Part shown: positions 229 through 29,318 of the stretch, piece after piece
How the letters are laid out: every line of letters begins with the position of its first letter
Numbering within the stretch: position 1 is the stretch's first letter
UHGV virus genome: UHGV-0194501
Strand: one strand, 5' to 3'
Length of the DNA stretch: 29,355 bases
DNA from: a virus
Made by a program: the position numbers and the translations under genes
The notes under the pieces: model-generated
Seen by the model: the letters and a program-made list of their open reading frames with translations, nothing else
Told to the model about the DNA's origin: nothing
Database searches by the model: none

Positions 229-978
229 TCAGTGCACGATCCACGCCGGATCGAGGACGCCGATGATCCGCCCTTGCGGGTACACGGCCGCGCTGGTGAG
301 CGGGATCGGCGCGTAGTCGCGATTGAGGGATATCAGCTCGCCGCACCCGGCTTGCTTTATAAAAGATTTTCCATCTACGGAAAAAACGCCCACTTCCCCA
401 AAATCGACGACGTCGGTTTTATGTACCAGCAGCAGATCGCCGTCTAGAAAGCGCGGCATCATGCTGTCGCCTTGGACGCGCACGACGTAGTCCGATGCGA
501 CCGTGTATCGATTGGCAAGGACTTCCAGCGTGTCGTGATATCCGTCGCCGGGATCCACTGTGCCCGTACCAGCCGACACCGGCAGGCGGTAGTAGTCGAT
601 GGTCAGCGTGGCGCGCTGCGTTTTCGCAGCGGGTCCGGGTTTCTGCTGCGATATCGCAGCGCCCGCTCGCGTATACTCACGATCCAGTATGATGGAAACT
701 GTCTCTTTCCCGTACGCGTCCAGCGTGCGGAATTTTTTTACAATTTCAAATTCGTCATTTGTGACGCCGACGCGCACAGGCGGGGTATCGCAAAAGTCAT
801 CCAAAGTTTTTCCCAAAACAGCCGCAATCGCTCGAACATTTTCAAGAGAGGGAGATTTTGAAATTCCTGCAATTATCTTGTTTATGGTACTTTTTGGAAC
901 GCCTGATTTTTCGGCCAGCTCGTCCAAAGTAATTTTCTTTTCCTTTCTGAATAGTGAAATCTTTTCACCGATATCCAT
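229..978 (-). CDS. CI-like repressor (XRE HTH + S24 peptidase)
   Basis: N-terminal HTH (ITLDELAEKSGVPKSTINKI) and C-terminal S24 motifs VQGDSMMP...FIKQ. RBS GAGGTG precedes the ATG at 978. Divergent from the cro-like gene. Confidence 0.92.
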   Translation of the reverse strand: MDIGEKISLFRKEKKITLDELAEKSGVPKSTINKIIAGISKSPSLENVRAIAAVLGKTLDDFCDTPPVRVGVTNDEFEIVKKFRTLDAYGKETVSIILDREYTRAGAAISQQKPGPAAKTQRATLTIDYYRLPVSAGTGTVDPGDGYHDTLEVLANRYTVASDYVVRVQGDSMMPRFLDGDLLLVHKTDVVDFGEVGVFSVDGKSFIKQAGCGELISLNRDYAPIPLTSAAVYPQGRIIGVLDPAWIVH

Positions 979-997
979 TAACATCACCTCTATCTAT

Positions 998-1106: not shown

Positions 1107-1122
1107 GTTCCACACATGGAAC
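1107..1122. promoter_or_regulatory. Putative CI/Cro operator
   Basis: Palindrome GTTCCA-caca-TGGAAC just downstream of PR. Degenerate copies near 1006-1021, 1034-1049 and 1076-1091. Confidence 0.6.
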
Positions 1123-1136
1123 GCGGAGGTGATATA

Positions 1137-1352
1137 GTGGCATATGTAGCATATCCCCGCCTTGCCAGTGAGATAAAAAGGCGAGGGATAAAAAAAGTAG
1201 CGATTGCCGAGCGCATCAAGGTGACAGAAAAGGCGCTGAGCAACAAAATGTCGGGAAAAACTTCCTTTTCATGGGAGCAGGTTTGCGAAATTGCGGAGAC
1301 TTTTTTCCCAGACCTTAGCAAAGAGTATCTTTTTGAAAAAGCGGACCAGTGA
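1137..1352 (+). CDS. Cro-like HTH protein
   Basis: Small XRE HTH (IAERIKVTEKALSNKMSGKTSFSWEQ), GTG start after GGAGGTG, divergent from cI. Confidence 0.85.
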   Translation: MAYVAYPRLASEIKRRGIKKVAIAERIKVTEKALSNKMSGKTSFSWEQVCEIAETFFPDLSKEYLFEKADQ

Positions 1353-13346: not shown

Positions 13347-15020
13347 ATGGCACTGAAAGCGCTGATGCTGCGGCGCAGCATCGAAAACAAAAAGGCAGAG
13401 CTTGCCAAACTCACCGCGAAAGATGCAGAGATGCAGACGCGCGAGGCTGAGCTGGAAAAAAGCGTCGCCGAAGTCGAAACCGAGGAACAGCAAAATGCAG
13501 TCTCTGCTGAGATCGACCAGTTTGAAGCTGATCGGGCGGCACACGAGAAAAGCAAAGCTGACATTTTGGAAAGCATTTCCGCGCTTGAAAAAGAGCTGGA
13601 AGAGCTGGAAAGATCTGATCCGGCTTTGCAGAAAAAAGAAGAACCGAAATCCGAAAGGGGTATGAGTATGGCAAATTTTGACGTGCGGTCGCTGCCGATT
13701 GGCAAAGCGGTCGTGGATGCGCTGCCGACTGAGCAGCGGGAAAGCATGATGCAGCGTGAGGATGTGAAAAAATTCCTTTCCGAGCTGCGGGCGTACAAGG
13801 GCCAGACGCGCGCGATCACGGGCGGCAGCCTGACAATCCCGACCGTGCTGCTCGATCTGGTGGCAGAAAATATGTACCGGTACAGCAAGCTGATCAACCG
13901 CGTGCGCGTGCGCAACGTCGCGGGCGTCGCCCGTCAGGTCGTGGCGGGTGTCATCCCGGAAGCGGTGTGGACGGAGATGTGCGGAGCAATCAACGAGCTT
14001 TCGCTGGAATTTAATTCCTATTCGCTTGACGGGTACAAAGTCGCTGGATACGTCCCGGTGTGCAACGCACTGCTGGAAGATAATGACATCGCGCTGGCGT
14101 CGTACATCGTCGAAGCCCTCGCGCAGGCGATCGGTCTGGCGCTGGACAAAGCGATCCTGTACGGCAAAGGCTCCGGAAGCAAGATGCCGATGGGTATCGT
14201 CACCCGGCTGGCGCAGCAGACGAAGCCGTCCGACTATCCGTCCGACGCTCCGGCCTGGACTGATCTGCACACCACCAACATCCAGAGCATCGACGCGTCC
14301 AAGACCGGCGCGGACTTTTGGTCGGCGCTGGCGCTAGCAGCCGGGAACACCTACACCAAGTATTCCCGCGGCATCCAGTTCTGGGCAATGAACTCCAAGA
14401 CCTACGCGAAGCTGAAATCCAAGACGATCACTTTCACGGCACAAGGTGACATTGTTTCCAATGTTTTCGGCGTCCTGCCGATCGTGAACGGCGATATCGA
14501 CATTTTGGAATTTATGCCAGATGGTGACATCGTCGGCGGCTATGGCGATCTGTATCTGCTGGCCCAGCGCGCGGGCATGGAGATCGAAAGCGATAGATCG
14601 GTGCAGTTTATCCAGGACAACACGGTTTTCCGCGGCAAGCAGCGCGCGGACGGCGTGCCGATCGTCCCGGGCGCTTTCGTGGCCATCAACATCGACGGCT
14701 CGACGGTCACGACCGCGATGGATTTTGCGGGAGATACTGCCAACGATGCGACCTTGTCCAGCCTGACGGTGGGTACCGAGACGCTGGCGCCGACCTTTGC
14801 GGCCGGTACGACGTCGTACGCGATCACCGCGTCCGGCACTTCGGCCGCCGTGACGGCTACCCCGGCGCAGGCCGATGCAGTGGTAGCGATTGCCTATAAT
14901 GGCAAAAACGTCTCCAACGGCGCGTCTGTCACCTGGACGTCCGGCGCGCACCCGCTGACGATCACCGTCAAGCGCGGAAACGCCACCCGCGTCTACACGG
15001 TCACGGTCACGAAGTCTTGA
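13347..15020 (+). CDS. Major capsid protein (HK97 fold, N-terminal delta domain) with C-terminal cadherin/Ig-like domain
   Basis: Coiled-coil N-terminus, LDKAILYGKG...PMGI, and C-terminal NDATLSSLTV...TRVYTVTVT. Confidence 0.92.
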   Translation: MALKALMLRRSIENKKAELAKLTAKDAEMQTREAELEKSVAEVETEEQQNAVSAEIDQFEADRAAHEKSKADILESISALEKELEELERSDPALQKKEEPKSERGMSMANFDVRSLPIGKAVVDALPTEQRESMMQREDVKKFLSELRAYKGQTRAITGGSLTIPTVLLDLVAENMYRYSKLINRVRVRNVAGVARQVVAGVIPEAVWTEMCGAINELSLEFNSYSLDGYKVAGYVPVCNALLEDNDIALASYIVEALAQAIGLALDKAILYGKGSGSKMPMGIVTRLAQQTKPSDYPSDAPAWTDLHTTNIQSIDASKTGADFWSALALAAGNTYTKYSRGIQFWAMNSKTYAKLKSKTITFTAQGDIVSNVFGVLPIVNGDIDILEFMPDGDIVGGYGDLYLLAQRAGMEIESDRSVQFIQDNTVFRGKQRADGVPIVPGAFVAINIDGSTVTTAMDFAGDTANDATLSSLTVGTETLAPTFAAGTTSYAITASGTSAAVTATPAQADAVVAIAYNGKNVSNGASVTWTSGAHPLTITVKRGNATRVYTVTVTKS

Positions 15021-24736: not shown

Positions 24737-25261
24737 ATGCTGAACTTTTTCCGTTCTTTGACAATCAACCGACTTGGCGCGGCCGAAGTCGGGCTGACAG
24801 CCGGAGCGGCTGCGCTCGGCGCATGGATGCTGGCACGCGTCGGTGCGCTGCTGCCGGTGCTGCTGGTGCTGCTCAGCGTGATGATCCTCGACTACATAAC
24901 CGGAATGGTAAAGGCAGGGATTTCCGGGAATCTCAACTCAACGCGCGGTTGGCAAGGACTTTTGAAAAAGCTCATGTATGCCGTGACCGTCGCGATCGCT
25001 ATGGTGGCCGACTATCTGCTGTATATCGGGGGCAGCCAGATCGGCATCGATATGCACGAAAGCGCATATTTTGGTACGCTTGTCTCGATTTGGCTAATCA
25101 TCAATGAATGCATTTCCATTTTGGAAAATCTTTCCGAAATCGGGGTGCCGATGCCGGGCTTCCTGGGGCGGATTTTGCAGCGTGTCCAGGACAAAGTGGA
25201 CGAAACCGGAAACGATATGGCAGAATCCGGTAATTCTGAAAGCGAGGATGATGCGACATGA
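24737..25261 (+). CDS. Holin (phage holin 4 / toxin-secretion family)
   Basis: LDYITG...GLLKK...INECISILEN...GVPMP; several TM segments. Confidence 0.88.
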   Translation: MLNFFRSLTINRLGAAEVGLTAGAAALGAWMLARVGALLPVLLVLLSVMILDYITGMVKAGISGNLNSTRGWQGLLKKLMYAVTVAIAMVADYLLYIGGSQIGIDMHESAYFGTLVSIWLIINECISILENLSEIGVPMPGFLGRILQRVQDKVDETGNDMAESGNSESEDDAT

Positions 25262-25331
25262 TGGAGCTGAGCGGCTCCCGGCGCGGGCTTTTCCAGTAAG
25301 ACACAGGCACGCTGACGGCGAAGGAAGTTAC

Positions 25332-25360
25332 TTGACAAATCTCCCTTGATGTGGTATAAT
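25332..25360 (+). promoter_or_regulatory. Consensus sigma-A promoter with no downstream ORF
   Basis: TTGACA-17-TATAAT with TGn extension. Confidence 0.8.
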
Positions 25361-25366
25361 TTCATC

Positions 25367-25470
25367 ACGTAGAAAACGCAGCGCGTTTGCGGGGCGGGAT
25401 TGGCGGCCAGCCGATCCGGCCCTATTTTTGCGTAAAGAAAAAGAGACGCTCGCCACGTCTCTTTTTTTTT
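25367..25470 (+). ncRNA. Putative structured sRNA (~100 nt)
   Basis: Promoter upstream; closing stem ACGTAGAAA/TTTTTGCGT encloses two hairpins; terminator downstream; no RBS or ORF. Confidence 0.55.
25438..25470. terminator. Bidirectional intrinsic terminator
   Basis: AAAAA-GAGACG-ctcgcca-CGTCTC-T9. Confidence 0.85.
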
Positions 25471-25499
25471 GGATTGGACGATACGCTTTTGACTTTTTA

Positions 25500-25527
25500 C
25501 AGTCACCCCCGCACACGCGGGGATTGG
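25500..25527 (-). CRISPR. Solitary type I-E-like CRISPR repeat (not an array)
   Basis: CCAATCCCCGCGTGTGCGGGGGTGACTG resembles the Firmicutes I-E repeat pattern GTNTTCCCCGCNNNNGCGGGGGTGATCC. The CCCCGC-tetraloop-GCGGGG stem is intact and followed by GTGA. Confidence 0.68.
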
Positions 25528-25548
25528 GTATCGCCCGATCACGTATAT

Positions 25549-25577
25549 AGTATATCATGGATGCGGGCGGATGTCAA
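25549..25577 (-). promoter_or_regulatory. Sigma-A promoter driving the repeat-containing RNA
   Basis: TTGACA (25577-25572)-17 bp-TATACT (25554-25549) with TGn extension. Confidence 0.8.
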
Positions 25578-25592
25578 GATGGCAGCAAAAAT

Positions 25593-26087
25593 TTATCTGC
25601 ATTTTTCGATGAGCCACTTTGCGCTTTTTTCCGTGCGGATTTTCAGGCGGCGTTCCCATCTGCCAATCGGCATCCACTTCGCACGCGCGCCGTCGATCTC
25701 TTCGATCATCTCTTCAACGGACGCATCCGCAGCGGCTTCACCTTTGCGGCGGATCATGATCTTGCGCATCTCGTCGATGATATCATCCGCCGTGGCGTCC
25801 GCGTACGGCGCATCATACATGATCGCGCGGCAGCGAATTTTTTCTGCCCATGCGATTTGTTTTACGGTGCCCTCCAAAGCCGGAAGCCCCAGCCGGACGG
25901 CCTGCGCGCGGATCATGCGCTCTTCGGATTCTTTGCACTCTTTTTCATAGCACTCCGGGCACATGGTGATATGCTCGGCAGCCCATTTTTCATAGGAATC
26001 CGCTTCATATCTTTTCCCGCACGCCTTCCGATGCTCGAACTCGCACCCGCATTTTTCGCAAACTCTTTTGATAATCGCAACCGCCAT
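25593..26087 (-). CDS. Zn-binding accessory protein (164 aa), anti-defence candidate
   Basis: CEKCG, CPEC, LPALEGTVKQIAWAEKIR; RBS AAAGGA; own operator-containing promoter. Confidence 0.75.
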   Translation of the reverse strand: MAVAIIKRVCEKCGCEFEHRKACGKRYEADSYEKWAAEHITMCPECYEKECKESEERMIRAQAVRLGLPALEGTVKQIAWAEKIRCRAIMYDAPYADATADDIIDEMRKIMIRRKGEAAADASVEEMIEEIDGARAKWMPIGRWERRLKIRTEKSAKWLIEKCR

Positions 26088-26125
26088 TTTGAAACATCCT
26101 TTCGATCTTTTTGATTTCTCTTTGA

Positions 26126-26164
26126 CTGTGATTATATTATAGCACATAATATGTGCCATGTCAA
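26126..26164 (-). promoter_or_regulatory. Consensus promoter with palindromic operator (copy B)
   Basis: TTGACA-17-TATAAT; the spacer contains GCACATA-N-TATGTGC. Confidence 0.88.
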
Positions 26165-26190
26165 GAGGTTTTTCAAAAAAATCGGATTTT

Positions 26191-26553
26191 TCAAAAAAAT
26201 TTTCGATCAAAAATCCCGATCAGCTGCGCAAGCATGATACGCAGGTATGGCGGCGTGCGATTAATCTCCGCTTCCCATGCCTGCAAAGTGCGGCGCGGGA
26301 TGCAGTACCTATCACAAAATCCCATCTGAGACAGTCCGAGCCGCTTTCGGACGTCTCGCACACTGAGATGCGCGACGTCCCATATGCTTTCCAGCTGATC
26401 CAGCAGATAAAGATCGGGATCGGCGTCGTCCGGGATATCGTCCTGCTCGATCTCGGCACCGTGATGCATCCAGTAGTCCAAAAACGCGTCCCGGCCATCG
26501 GCCGGGAGCGACACTGCATGGGAAAATATATCATGGAATTGTTTGTCATCCAT
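26191..26553 (-). CDS. XRE HTH protein with acidic N-terminal domain (Aca-like repressor candidate)
   Basis: VRKRLGLSQMGFCDRYCIPRRTLQAWE...TPPYLRIML; last gene of the operon from promoter A. Confidence 0.8.
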   Translation of the reverse strand: MDDKQFHDIFSHAVSLPADGRDAFLDYWMHHGAEIEQDDIPDDADPDLYLLDQLESIWDVAHLSVRDVRKRLGLSQMGFCDRYCIPRRTLQAWEAEINRTPPYLRIMLAQLIGIFDRKFF

Positions 26554-27397
26554 GGGAGATCACCTCAAACATTCCGGGAGTAGCCCCAACACCTGGGAAA
26601 ATATCGCTGTCATTTTGGGCGGATTGCCATGCACTGGATACGTCGCCGAGGTCGTCAAAGCGCACCCCCTGTATAACAATTTGTACGTCCGTACCGCGCT
26701 GTGTACGCCCAATTTTTTTCAAAGATTTGCAAAGGTTTTCCATCTCATCCTCCGAGAGGGAGGCCACGACATACATGCGCATTTTCCATCCAGCAGCGGC
26801 AGCGAAACTCTCGACCTCCCCGTACAGGAAATCGTCCAAATTTCCATCTTCGCAATATTCTGTTAATTCCTGCCAAAAACGGCGCTCTACATTTTTTACT
26901 GCTGGCACGTCTCTGTGCTGGATGAGCGCATCCGGCACCCATGCCCAGATGCTGTCTTCGTCGGGATCAAGATGACTTGCAATTGCGTCAGAAAATGACA
27001 TCCACGCTTGTTTTCCAAGCATTTCCATTGCGTTTGCGGATTCGATGCTGGCAGCCATGTCGTAGTACAGCTGCTCCATCACATAGCGGATCGGGTGCGC
27101 GTACATATCGAGACGGCCGCGCACCGCTTCCATGGCTTTCAGCCCGGTCTTTGCATACTGCGGATCGTGTACCGCTTTTCTGGCCCAGTCTTTATACTCC
27201 GCACGCGGCATCTGGAAAAAGAAAGCGCCGTCCACGTATGCCGTGGATGTATGATCGAAGCCCGTGCGCGCGTCGTGCAGATGGACACGAAAGCGAAGCT
27301 GATCCAGATAGTCGGTATCCGCAAAATCCATCGTCCCGGCGTCCGTATCCCACAGGTCGATAATCTCCCAGGGCGATAATCTTTTAATTTTTTCCAT
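26546..27397 (-). CDS. Acidic hypothetical protein (283 aa), anti-defence candidate
   Basis: RBS AAAGGA; D/E-rich; N-terminal ~100 aa resemble the upstream ORF. Confidence 0.75.
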   Translation of the reverse strand: MEKIKRLSPWEIIDLWDTDAGTMDFADTDYLDQLRFRVHLHDARTGFDHTSTAYVDGAFFFQMPRAEYKDWARKAVHDPQYAKTGLKAMEAVRGRLDMYAHPIRYVMEQLYYDMAASIESANAMEMLGKQAWMSFSDAIASHLDPDEDSIWAWVPDALIQHRDVPAVKNVERRFWQELTEYCEDGNLDDFLYGEVESFAAAAGWKMRMYVVASLSEDEMENLCKSLKKIGRTQRGTDVQIVIQGVRFDDLGDVSSAWQSAQNDSDIFPGVGATPGMFEVISHG

Positions 27398-27462
27398 GAT
27401 TTAACATCCTTTCTCAATGTGGCATCCCGGGGGCTTTCGCCCCCGGTGCGCTGTCTCTTTCT

Positions 27463-27798
27463 TTATCCGATACGATCCAGGGCTTTCAGCGTGCTTTCGT
27501 CCGGATCGAACTCTTCGCCCCAGTACTCGCAGTAGGCATCCAATTTTTGGTTCAGATCGTCTTTCACTTCGTCGAGGTAGTCCACCCAGTCCGGATTTTC
27601 GTCCGTCATCATGTCGTAGAACTCGTCCTCGCTCATGTCCTTCACATAAGCGCCGCGTCCGCTGCTGTACTCGATCTTTTCGCCGTCTTTGCTGACCAGC
27701 GTGACGTATACCCAAAGGTATCCATCGTAGTCGATTTCAAAGCTGCCGCAGTGAGTGCTCCAAAGATTTTTGACCTGCTCCAAAGTGAGATTTTTCAT
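27463..27798 (-). CDS. Small, highly acidic protein (111 aa), Acr / DNA-mimic candidate
   Basis: RBS AAAGGA; rich in D/E and aromatic residues; first gene after promoter A. Confidence 0.8.
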   Translation of the reverse strand: MKNLTLEQVKNLWSTHCGSFEIDYDGYLWVYVTLVSKDGEKIEYSSGRGAYVKDMSEDEFYDMMTDENPDWVDYLDEVKDDLNQKLDAYCEYWGEEFDPDESTLKALDRIG

Positions 27799-27847
27799 GA
27801 TTATGCATCCTTTCTTTTGAGGGAATTTATTTTGTTTCTCTCCCTCT

Positions 27848-27886
27848 CTGTGATTATATTATAGCACATAATATGTGCTATGTCAA
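27848..27886 (-). promoter_or_regulatory. Consensus promoter with palindromic operator (copy A)
   Basis: 38/39 bp identical to 26126-26164; 21-bp palindrome ATAGCACATA-A-TATGTGCTAT. Confidence 0.88.
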
Positions 27887-28065
27887 TAGCTTTTACGAAA
27901 AAACTTAAAAAAATTTTTCTTCCATCAATTACCAAAAAAGCAAATCCAAATCGGTTTTTGCCGCACTTTTTGCCGCACTTTTGCCGCACTTTTGACCTTT
28001 GCCGCACCCCTGCCGCAGCCGTTTTGCACCCAAATGCACCTATTTTCCCCTTTGAAAAACGCTGC

Positions 28066-28106
28066 AAAAAAAGCCGATCTGCCGCGATATACCGCGACAA
28101 ATCGGC
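28066..28106 (-). terminator. Intrinsic terminator downstream of the tRNA fragment and integrase
   Basis: Minus strand: GCCGATTTGTCGCG-gtatat-CGCGGCAGATCGGC-T7. Confidence 0.75.
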
Positions 28107-28116
28107 GTTTTTGGCT

Positions 28117-28168
28117 TGGAGCTGGTGGACGGGCTCGAACCCCCGACCTGCTGATTACAAATCAGCTG
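28117..28168 (-). tRNA. 3' part of tRNA-Thr(UGU) forming the attP core (not a full tRNA)
   Basis: CAGCTGATTTGTAATCAGCAGGTCGGGGGTTCGAGCCCGTCCACCAGCTCCA: anticodon arm with TGT, T-arm GGTTCGA and 3' CCA; no D-arm or 5' acceptor strand. Confidence 0.9.
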
Positions 28169-28217
28169 GGTGCTTTGCCCTTTTTCGCATGATACCGGGA
28201 AAAACGGGGCTTCCATT

Positions 28218-29318
28218 TTAGCCGTGCCGCACTTTTGCCGCACTTTCAGAATTTCCCTTTTCCCTGTAAGCACGCAGGGATTTTACGGCGTTTTCTTCCA
28301 TCTCCGGCGTGAAGTGGGTGTACACATTTGCCGTCATTTTTATGTCACTATGTCCCAAAAGTACCTTCGCGACGTTGAGCGGGACACCAGCCGCTTGCAT
28401 ATCGGTGGCAAAAGTGTGGCGCAGGCAGTATGGCGATAGATCGTCCGCAAGCCTTGAGATCATGATGCGATTTCGGTACAGCTGCGCGCCCATCTCGATA
28501 TCCAGCGCGCGGCGGAAGCTTTTCCACATACGCTGCACCCGGTCGTGCGTCATGGGGGATACACCGTCGGACATTGTAAAAATTTGGATTGAGAGGGTTT
28601 TTCTTTTGGCCGCGCGAAGATCGTCCAGCAGCTCATCCGGGATCGGCACGCGACGCACACCGGCACGCGTCTTGGTCGTCTGCCGCCCGATGGAGTGAGA
28701 GACAGACAAAAGCGCGTGCGGAAAGTCCACATCCGACCAGCGCAGATCGGCAGCCTCGGACGGACGCAGTCCGCAGTACAGCATGAGCTTGATCCACAAG
28801 CCGGCCGGGTGATCCTCCGCGACTTTGAGGATGGCGGCGCGCTCGGCGTCGGTGATCGATCGGTGCGTACCGGCGACCGCTTCCGGCGCCTTCAGCCCGC
28901 GAGCGGGATTTTTCTGCAAAATGTCATCATTTACCGCTGATTCAAAAATTTGCATCATGGTCATGTGGATTTTCTGCACCTGGCTATGGCTTTCTCCCGC
29001 GTGCGCTGACAGTATCCGCGCGCAGTGGCTGCGGCGGATATCCGCCAGCCGGATCGCCCCCAGCACGGGATCGAGGTGCTTCCGCACGATCGTCTCGTAC
29101 ATCCGTACGGACTTTTTCACGACCGTCCCGCGCTTATAGGTATCGAGCCAGTGCTCGGCATAGTCGTCGAAGCGTGTGCGGTCATTTAGCACAGCAATTC
29201 CATTTTCTACCTTGATTTGCGCTTCCAGCACCTTTTTGTCCAGCTCCGCTTGACTGTCCGCCCGGATGGTCATCCGCCGGCCTCCCGGCAGCGTGATATC
29301 TTTTCTAAATTTTTGCAT
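28218..29318 (-). CDS. int: Tyrosine integrase
   Basis: GLRPSE, CLRHT, LLGH, VYTH catalytic motifs; RBS AAAGGAG; adjacent to attP. Confidence 0.95.
   Translation of the reverse strand: MQKFRKDITLPGGRRMTIRADSQAELDKKVLEAQIKVENGIAVLNDRTRFDDYAEHWLDTYKRGTVVKKSVRMYETIVRKHLDPVLGAIRLADIRRSHCARILSAHAGESHSQVQKIHMTMMQIFESAVNDDILQKNPARGLKAPEAVAGTHRSITDAERAAILKVAEDHPAGLWIKLMLYCGLRPSEAADLRWSDVDFPHALLSVSHSIGRQTTKTRAGVRRVPIPDELLDDLRAAKRKTLSIQIFTMSDGVSPMTHDRVQRMWKSFRRALDIEMGAQLYRNRIMISRLADDLSPYCLRHTFATDMQAAGVPLNVAKVLLGHSDIKMTANVYTHFTPEMEENAVKSLRAYREKGNSESAAKVRHG

Follow-up and report, generated by a model that had tools for sequence, protein, structure and literature searches.

A likely anti-CRISPR cassette with a candidate repeat RNA directed against type I-E systems in a temperate siphovirus

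Beside its phage attachment site the viral DNA analysed here, a stretch of 29,355 nucleotides referred to below as the window, carries a small group of genes and a solitary CRISPR repeat which together are quite likely to form an acr-aca-racr cassette directed against type I-E CRISPR-Cas systems. Judged by its sequence, the repeat RNA is likely a decoy against host CRISPR immunity. The repeat closely resembles that of an uncultured member of the Clostridiales, genome G001, about half of whose type I-E spacers match this phage. A putative regulatory HTH protein, two nearly identical promoters bearing its presumptive operator, and three further proteins without assigned function complete the cassette.

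Phage and cassette layout

Profile searches of the window ORFs point to a small temperate siphovirus, most of whose genome is covered by the window. Genes for replication, terminase, portal, capsid, tail, endolysin and holin follow one another on the plus strand; after them come the cassette, the att site and a tyrosine integrase (28218..29318, minus strand; Pfam and PHROGs). The divergent genes at 229-984 (minus strand) and 1116-1352 (plus strand) were labelled cI-like and cro-like from reading their translations. Sequencing runs containing parts of the cassette region derive from wastewater and animal gut; some of it is present in 20 of 24 rows, and half or more in one of the 24. The RNA runs among them contain no more than a small share of the region.

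A bidirectional terminator hairpin (25434..25470) separates the late operon from the cassette. At the other side the 3' half of a tRNA-Thr(TGT) gene (28109..28168, minus strand) adjoins the integrase and thereby marks attP, so that the cassette does stand where the preliminary description had put it, next to attP. Over 60 bp the core shares 98% identity with the intact tRNA-Thr(TGT) gene of G001, and the tRNA fragment was the only match in an Rfam search over 25200-28300. Five copies of a motif, TTTGCCGCAC, flank the att core on either side (27957-28017 and 28223-28246) and are likely to represent integrase arm sites.

Four ORFs, all with good ribosome-binding sites, lie on the minus strand downstream of promoters. 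P1 precedes ORF1 (27463..27798; 111 aa, pI 4.05), ORF2 (26546..27397; 283 aa, pI 4.68) and an XRE-type HTH gene (26191..26553; 120 aa), and P2 precedes ORF4 (25593..26087; 164 aa, pI 8.0). It had been claimed that four genes, one of them encoding an XRE HTH protein, oppose the late operon, and such is the case, the HTH gene being the third. Their portrayal as acidic small proteins fits ORF1 and the HTH; ORF2 is acidic but has 283 residues, and ORF4 is not acidic. Between ORF1 and ORF2 (27409-27451) is a strong GC hairpin whose loop has four bases. This stretch is retained in the related phages L092 and L094, both of which have no ORF2, and it may serve as an mRNA stabiliser or as a recombination joint for gene swaps.

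Twin operators and the probable HTH repressor

Promoters P1 (TTGACA-17-TATAAT, 27848..27886) and P2 (26126..26164), both on the minus strand, match the consensus at 12/12 positions (27886..27858 and 26164..26136) and possess a TG extension; the two 39-bp blocks differ at a single base. In the spacer of each lies the palindrome GCACATA-N-TATGTGC (GCACATANTATGTGC), of which the only exact matches in the window are those at 27864-27878 and 26142-26156. A search allowing up to three mismatches adds a single site, with three mismatches and at 13863 (mean expected by chance 1.14); the cI/cro region contains no such site. The twin promoters with perfect boxes, and a palindrome unlike the cI operator, were therefore correctly recognized beforehand. 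A viral scan with the operator-promoter pattern produced no matches. One other locus, L068, was discarded as an operator site, being a tRNA promoter look-alike.

The HTH protein possesses an acidic N-terminal half and the recognition helix RRTLQAW. It matches Pfam HTH_3 at E=0.0055, which is under the curated cut-off, and phrog_25567 at 2e-11. The position of the palindrome between the -35 and -10 boxes implies repression by the bound HTH. The link between this protein and the palindrome, which had been proposed from the window, now also draws support from comparison with relatives. An alignment search with the HTH led to 47 metagenome loci. Altogether 52 sequences were examined for covariation and 17 were scored; two were dropped for want of the helix motif and 33 because the fixed register contained no operator, the majority of these 33 belonging to a distant group in which the palindrome is one base off.

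In L091, a close relative, the HTH is 100% identical to that of the window and the same palindrome occurs in both promoters. Those of L092 and L093 are 78 and 81% identical with the helix YRSLED, and here CCACGG-ATT-CCGTGG is found in both promoters. Two operator promoters are present in eight of the 17 scored loci, and within each locus both copies are of one type. Helices ending in A accompany the half-site CACAT, those ending in D accompany CACG, and those ending in N accompany CACC or CACT; the window helix (RRTLQA) and that of L095 and L097 (RRTYEA; 46% identical) both occur with CACAT. The ten helix/half-site types covary with a permutation p of 0.0019, the test being post hoc and the types sharing ancestry. 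The operator of L138, an unrelated gut viral contig which was retrieved by the RNA search, agrees with its helix type and so repeats the pairing seen in L087; its HTH is of the same family as ours (hhalign 97.5%). Since helix and palindrome change together across related phages, and both operator copies change together, the HTH very probably represses the twin promoters.

Like the operons controlled by Aca1-14 (PMC13551039), the cassette has its HTH gene within an operon, an inverted repeat overlapping the promoter, and a single regulator whose two operators serve neighbouring operons, the control of neighbouring operons by one Aca being known (bioRxiv 2026.07.27.740549). Unlike the operons presented in the available part of PMC13551039, it contains no validated acr gene, none being found when the window and 30 neighbour ORFs were scanned in Pfam, and the HTH gave no significant match to solved Acas in a PDB search, the best Aca-like rows included. 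A further difference from that account is that helix and operator are here exchanged together between close phage strains.

Cassette proteins

ORF1 belongs to no known family and is represented by other alleles in related phages, while ORF2 belongs to a narrow family of 14 homologues and is absent in L092 and L094. The N-terminal domain of ORF2 and ORF1 are distant paralogues which are linked through the L091 allele (E=1e-7). Neither has a Pfam or PHROG family, and no cassette protein found a match in NCBIfam. ORF1 gave no usable Atlas match, and its apolipoprotein-like PDB matches were rejected as coiled-coil noise; the ORF2 model (pLDDT 75) has no fold match in PDB or BFVD at E<=0.001. One G001 spacer matches ORF2 with six mismatches. 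Across the DNA contigs of different strains the promoters persist, while ORF1, ORF2 and ORF4 may be replaced or missing. The ORF4 slot of L092 is occupied by a GNAT acetyltransferase (L092:5460-5789), directly before the repeat RNA. Anti-CRISPR proteins which are acetylating enzymes exist, AcrVA5 being one example.

ORF4 combines a four-cysteine, zinc-ribbon-like N-terminus with the motif G-T-x-K-Q-x-x-W-A. Its sole family match is one PHROG of unknown function, yet its family is large and unnamed (2,956 clusters). In an alignment of 84 sequences, taken from 83 of the 150 matches listed, the cysteines, G73, K76, Q77 and R85 are invariant or nearly so; INPHARED yielded no match. In the PDB its profile matches AcrIF23 best (E=0.028), a zinc finger and AcrIE7 (E=0.09-0.12) ranking next, and it shares with AcrIE7 (PMC12002350) and AcrIF23 (PMC9270243) the helix motif G-x-x-K-Q-x-x-W-A. 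K76 aligns with K6 of AcrIE7, numbered by inference from a 106-aa chain, and that residue is required for single-stranded DNA binding (PMC12002350). In contrast to these two proteins ORF4 adds the four-cysteine domain, and the part of it that matches AcrIF23 excludes the loop of residues 17-28 which binds Cas2/3 (PMC9270243). The ORF4 model, a weak one (pLDDT 67), compares with 7fia at E=0.87 and TM 0.19. Homology of ORF4 to AcrIF23 or AcrIE7 over the full length, in sequence or fold, was not found, the likeness being confined to the motif.

Searches of Pfam, PHROGs, NCBIfam and the PDB gave no significant match between any cassette protein and a known Acr. What we retain of the earlier suggestion of possibly new Acr families is the weak ORF4 motif match, a lead and not a membership. 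It resembles, at motif level only, the occurrence of distant AcrIF23 homologues near acr-aca operons (PMC13551039). The chances that at least one of the ORFs is an anti-CRISPR protein appear about even, ORF4 being the best candidate.

It is possible, though on balance rather doubtful, that anti-CRISPR activity is confined to the repeat RNA, the ORFs under HTH control acting against other defences (restriction-modification, abortive infection, nucleotide signalling) or serving to exclude superinfection. P3, the promoter of the RNA, has no operator; unrelated genes such as the GNAT acetyltransferase fill the ORF slots in relatives; homologues with the ORF4 motif precede a gene in L001 and L003 which reads like a helicase from its sequence; and many non-Acr genes occur in Aca-regulated operons (bioRxiv 2026.07.27.740549). 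Against this, two type I Acrs are among the best PDB matches of ORF4, and L138, too, has an ORF with the ORF4 motif (92%) next to a solitary I-E repeat. An ordinary lysogenic-conversion moron with an autoregulated XRE repressor, devoid of any role in counter-defence, would suit the att-adjacent position, the opposite orientation and the fact that no ORF has a known function. We regard it as improbable, since it leaves unexplained the conserved, host-matched repeat RNA, the recurrence in L138 and the heavy spacer pressure on this phage.

The predicted repeat RNA with its probable host and action

A solitary type I-E repeat (25500..25527, minus strand) is situated between ORF4 and the late-operon terminator. 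It is intergenic and single-copy, and the ORFs scanned around it are phage genes only, with neither cas genes nor a second repeat. P3 (TTGACA-17-TATACT, 11/12; 25549..25577, minus strand) begins 16 bases past the ORF4 stop and is predicted, from its consensus match only, to drive an RNA of about 110 nt (25432..25543, minus strand). The preliminary description had alluded to an RNA element, and this lies at approximately 25432-25577, outside the segment given there. The predicted transcript folds far better than shuffled sequences (z=-6.2, terminator included) into an outer 9-bp stem (25536-25528/25484-25476), the hairpin of the repeat, a further hairpin of 4 bp which covers handle positions 3-6 (25504-25491), and the terminator. 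Cas6e is predicted to cut between 25507 and 25506.

The 20-nt core of the repeat was found at 60 loci in genome contigs, many of which are arrays of 61-bp period in Bacillota. One of these (L060), in G001, is composed of 47 repeats and 46 spacers. The phage repeat is identical to that of G001 at 22 of 28 positions, 21 of them contiguous (25503-25523), the whole stem-loop being the same; the 5' handles differ (GTGACTGT in the phage vs GTGATCCN in the host). Since G001 was found through the repeat search this match was selected, and the spacers and the att core furnish independent confirmation. Twenty-four of the 46 spacers match the window with seven or fewer mismatches, 18 with four or fewer and five perfectly, and AA stands upstream of the protospacer in 12 of those 18; no match at seven or fewer mismatches was obtained with 298 spacers from other arrays. 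Because its array targets the phage and its tRNA-Thr matches attP, G001 is a host or close kin of one. Its I-E operon is complete (cas3, cse1, cse2, cas7, cas5, cas6e, cas1 and cas2; NCBIfam, above cut-off or as best match), with cas3 truncated by the end of the locus examined. The claim of an RNA anti-CRISPR component gains support from this I-E system, the matching repeat and the 24 spacers, and its target narrows to type I-E, which the RNA probably inhibits.

No prophage with this cassette was found in G001. Two of its contigs (L064 and L065) contain the tRNA-Thr region with the same flanks, and the site looks empty in both. In the I-E locus (L070:4149-5162, L060:2901-3773) the gene before cas3 reads like a WYL regulator, and Cas2e is fused to a DEDDh exonuclease.

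The repeat is retained in L092 and L093. Among these and the window, three sequences in all, one base pair of the outer stem is altered in both partners and another in a single partner. In all four related contig sets (DNA contigs from four other runs) 25479-25523 has no listed change and the flanks vary, and two outer-stem changes in these sets keep pairing. Handle positions 3-6 are paired with a probability of at least 0.98 in all four such RNAs, similar burial being seen in five of the 46 host array units. The compensatory changes in the outer stem lend support to the predicted clamped fold. L138 carries its cassette (L138:591-3800) beside a recombinase-like gene, and this includes a solitary I-E repeat, which has a promoter of its own and an 11-bp outer stem of different sequence. 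Its handle hairpin has the same form (4 bp, 6-nt loop) with two pairs exchanged.

Among 19 single-match viral loci examined, a true solitary repeat is present only in L138, the sole independent example of the clamped repeat which we found. Viral scans with the exact repeat and with the window-type handle hairpin each gave no matches; the other handle-hairpin pattern gave two, L169, on the L138 contig, and L170, which was rejected as an ordinary array. A pattern search of 401 family genomes matched seven, in none of which did the matched text include a handle hairpin, and only two of the 47 metagenome HTH loci carry a solitary repeat. In L091 P3 and the repeat are deleted (L091:5969-5978), and the 3' segment and terminator remain; the repeat RNA is therefore dispensable.

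On phage entry P1, P2 and P3 would fire at once. A dimer of the HTH would then bind both operators, between the -35 and -10 boxes, and shut off P1 and P2, and the repeat RNA would be made from unrepressed P3, possibly also by read-through from P2, which could supply longer forms. With RacrIF1, the stem-loop of the repeat is bound and cleaved by Cas6f, inhibition comes from the upstream product, and the handle is for the most part dispensable (PMC10651486). By analogy, we infer that Cas6e would bind the phage repeat hairpin and thus be diverted from real pre-crRNA. RacrIF1 exerts its effect by way of a long upstream fragment with a Cas7 coat (PMC10651486), whereas transcription from P3 would leave about 21 nt upstream of the hairpin. 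A length of this order would not accommodate an extended Cas7 filament and, with the handle predicted to be buried as well, titration of Cas6e offers the simplest model.

A resemblance to Racr RNAs or solitary repeat units, especially acrIC5-racrIC1 and RacrIE1/2 (Camara-Wilpert 2023, PMC10651486), is seen in the single intergenic repeat with an upstream promoter, in a subtype matching the host system and in the position of the repeat directly downstream of an Acr-like gene. Taken whole, the cassette would operate as an acr-aca operon followed by a Racr, in the manner of acrIC5-racrIC1. The repeat accordingly has the sequence features of a Racr candidate, as the cassette has the layout of one under Aca control. 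Its Clostridial I-E host sets it apart from the Racrs in the accessible portions of PMC10651486, in which we also found no description of an outer clamp with a handle-burying hairpin. The 20-nt core does not occur in nine supplementary files of that paper, a set which possibly excludes its large tables, and the literature searched, from which most subscription papers were left out, contained no clamped I-E Racr.

Two other roles for the repeat are very unlikely. As a guide RNA (Cracr or crlRNA) it would send Cascade to silence a host cas promoter. The unit shares with such guides, of which I-E examples exist (bioRxiv 2024.10.29.618823), a phage-borne repeat-like element with a downstream segment, and the order of repeat, 32-nt segment and hairpin gives a crRNA-like spacing. 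We rejected this reading: there is only one repeat, unlike the guides in the part of that preprint available, the predicted fold places both handle and guide in base pairs, and no target was found in the host cas locus (best PAM-anchored match of 5 nt in G001 vs a shuffle mean of 5.1) or genome-wide (one pattern match, with two mismatches, vs one control match). If the repeat instead served the processing of ORF4 mRNA by Cas6e or the stability of that mRNA, or were a REP-like palindrome with no connection to CRISPR, this would agree with the absence of a detected terminator between ORF4 and the repeat and with the single occurrence of the same 20-nt core in alphaproteobacterial genomes (L007, L020, L029), but not with the repeat having its own promoter in the window, L092, L093 and L138, nor with a single-copy sequence which matches the repeat of the host targeting this phage.

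Returning to the decoy, a more elaborate joint proposal is speculative and rather unlikely to hold in full. Here the RNA would be a structural subclass of I-E Racrs, a pure Cas6e sponge with a clamped junction; ORF4 would be the first member of a large zinc-ribbon family with the AcrIE7/AcrIF23 motif, shielding R-loop DNA; and the HTH would represent an Aca family in which helix and operator are exchanged jointly. The outer stem would clamp the leader to the downstream segment and the 4-bp hairpin would hide the 5' handle, so that Cas6e might bind, cut and stay trapped, neither product seeding Cascade, unlike the Cas7 filament of RacrIF1. Should the clamped fold matter, it would amount to a second mode of RNA anti-CRISPR action and a compact type I-E off-switch. 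New here are an identified targeting host, the clamped RNA fold predicted in two unrelated phages, and the helix-operator code, with which Clostridial gut phages can be searched for counter-defence genes. Phage, host with about half of its I-E array aimed at the phage, natural RNA deletion (L091) and gene swaps constitute a matched test set.

On the plus strand, at 25332-25430, a fourth perfect promoter (12/12) leads into a non-coding stretch of about 60 nt which ends in a GC hairpin and a T run and is convergent on the repeat RNA. It has a fold z of -3.4 and no Rfam match. The element is present in L091 and L093, where the changes preserve pairs, and L092 has a promoter at the same position but a different structured RNA behind it.
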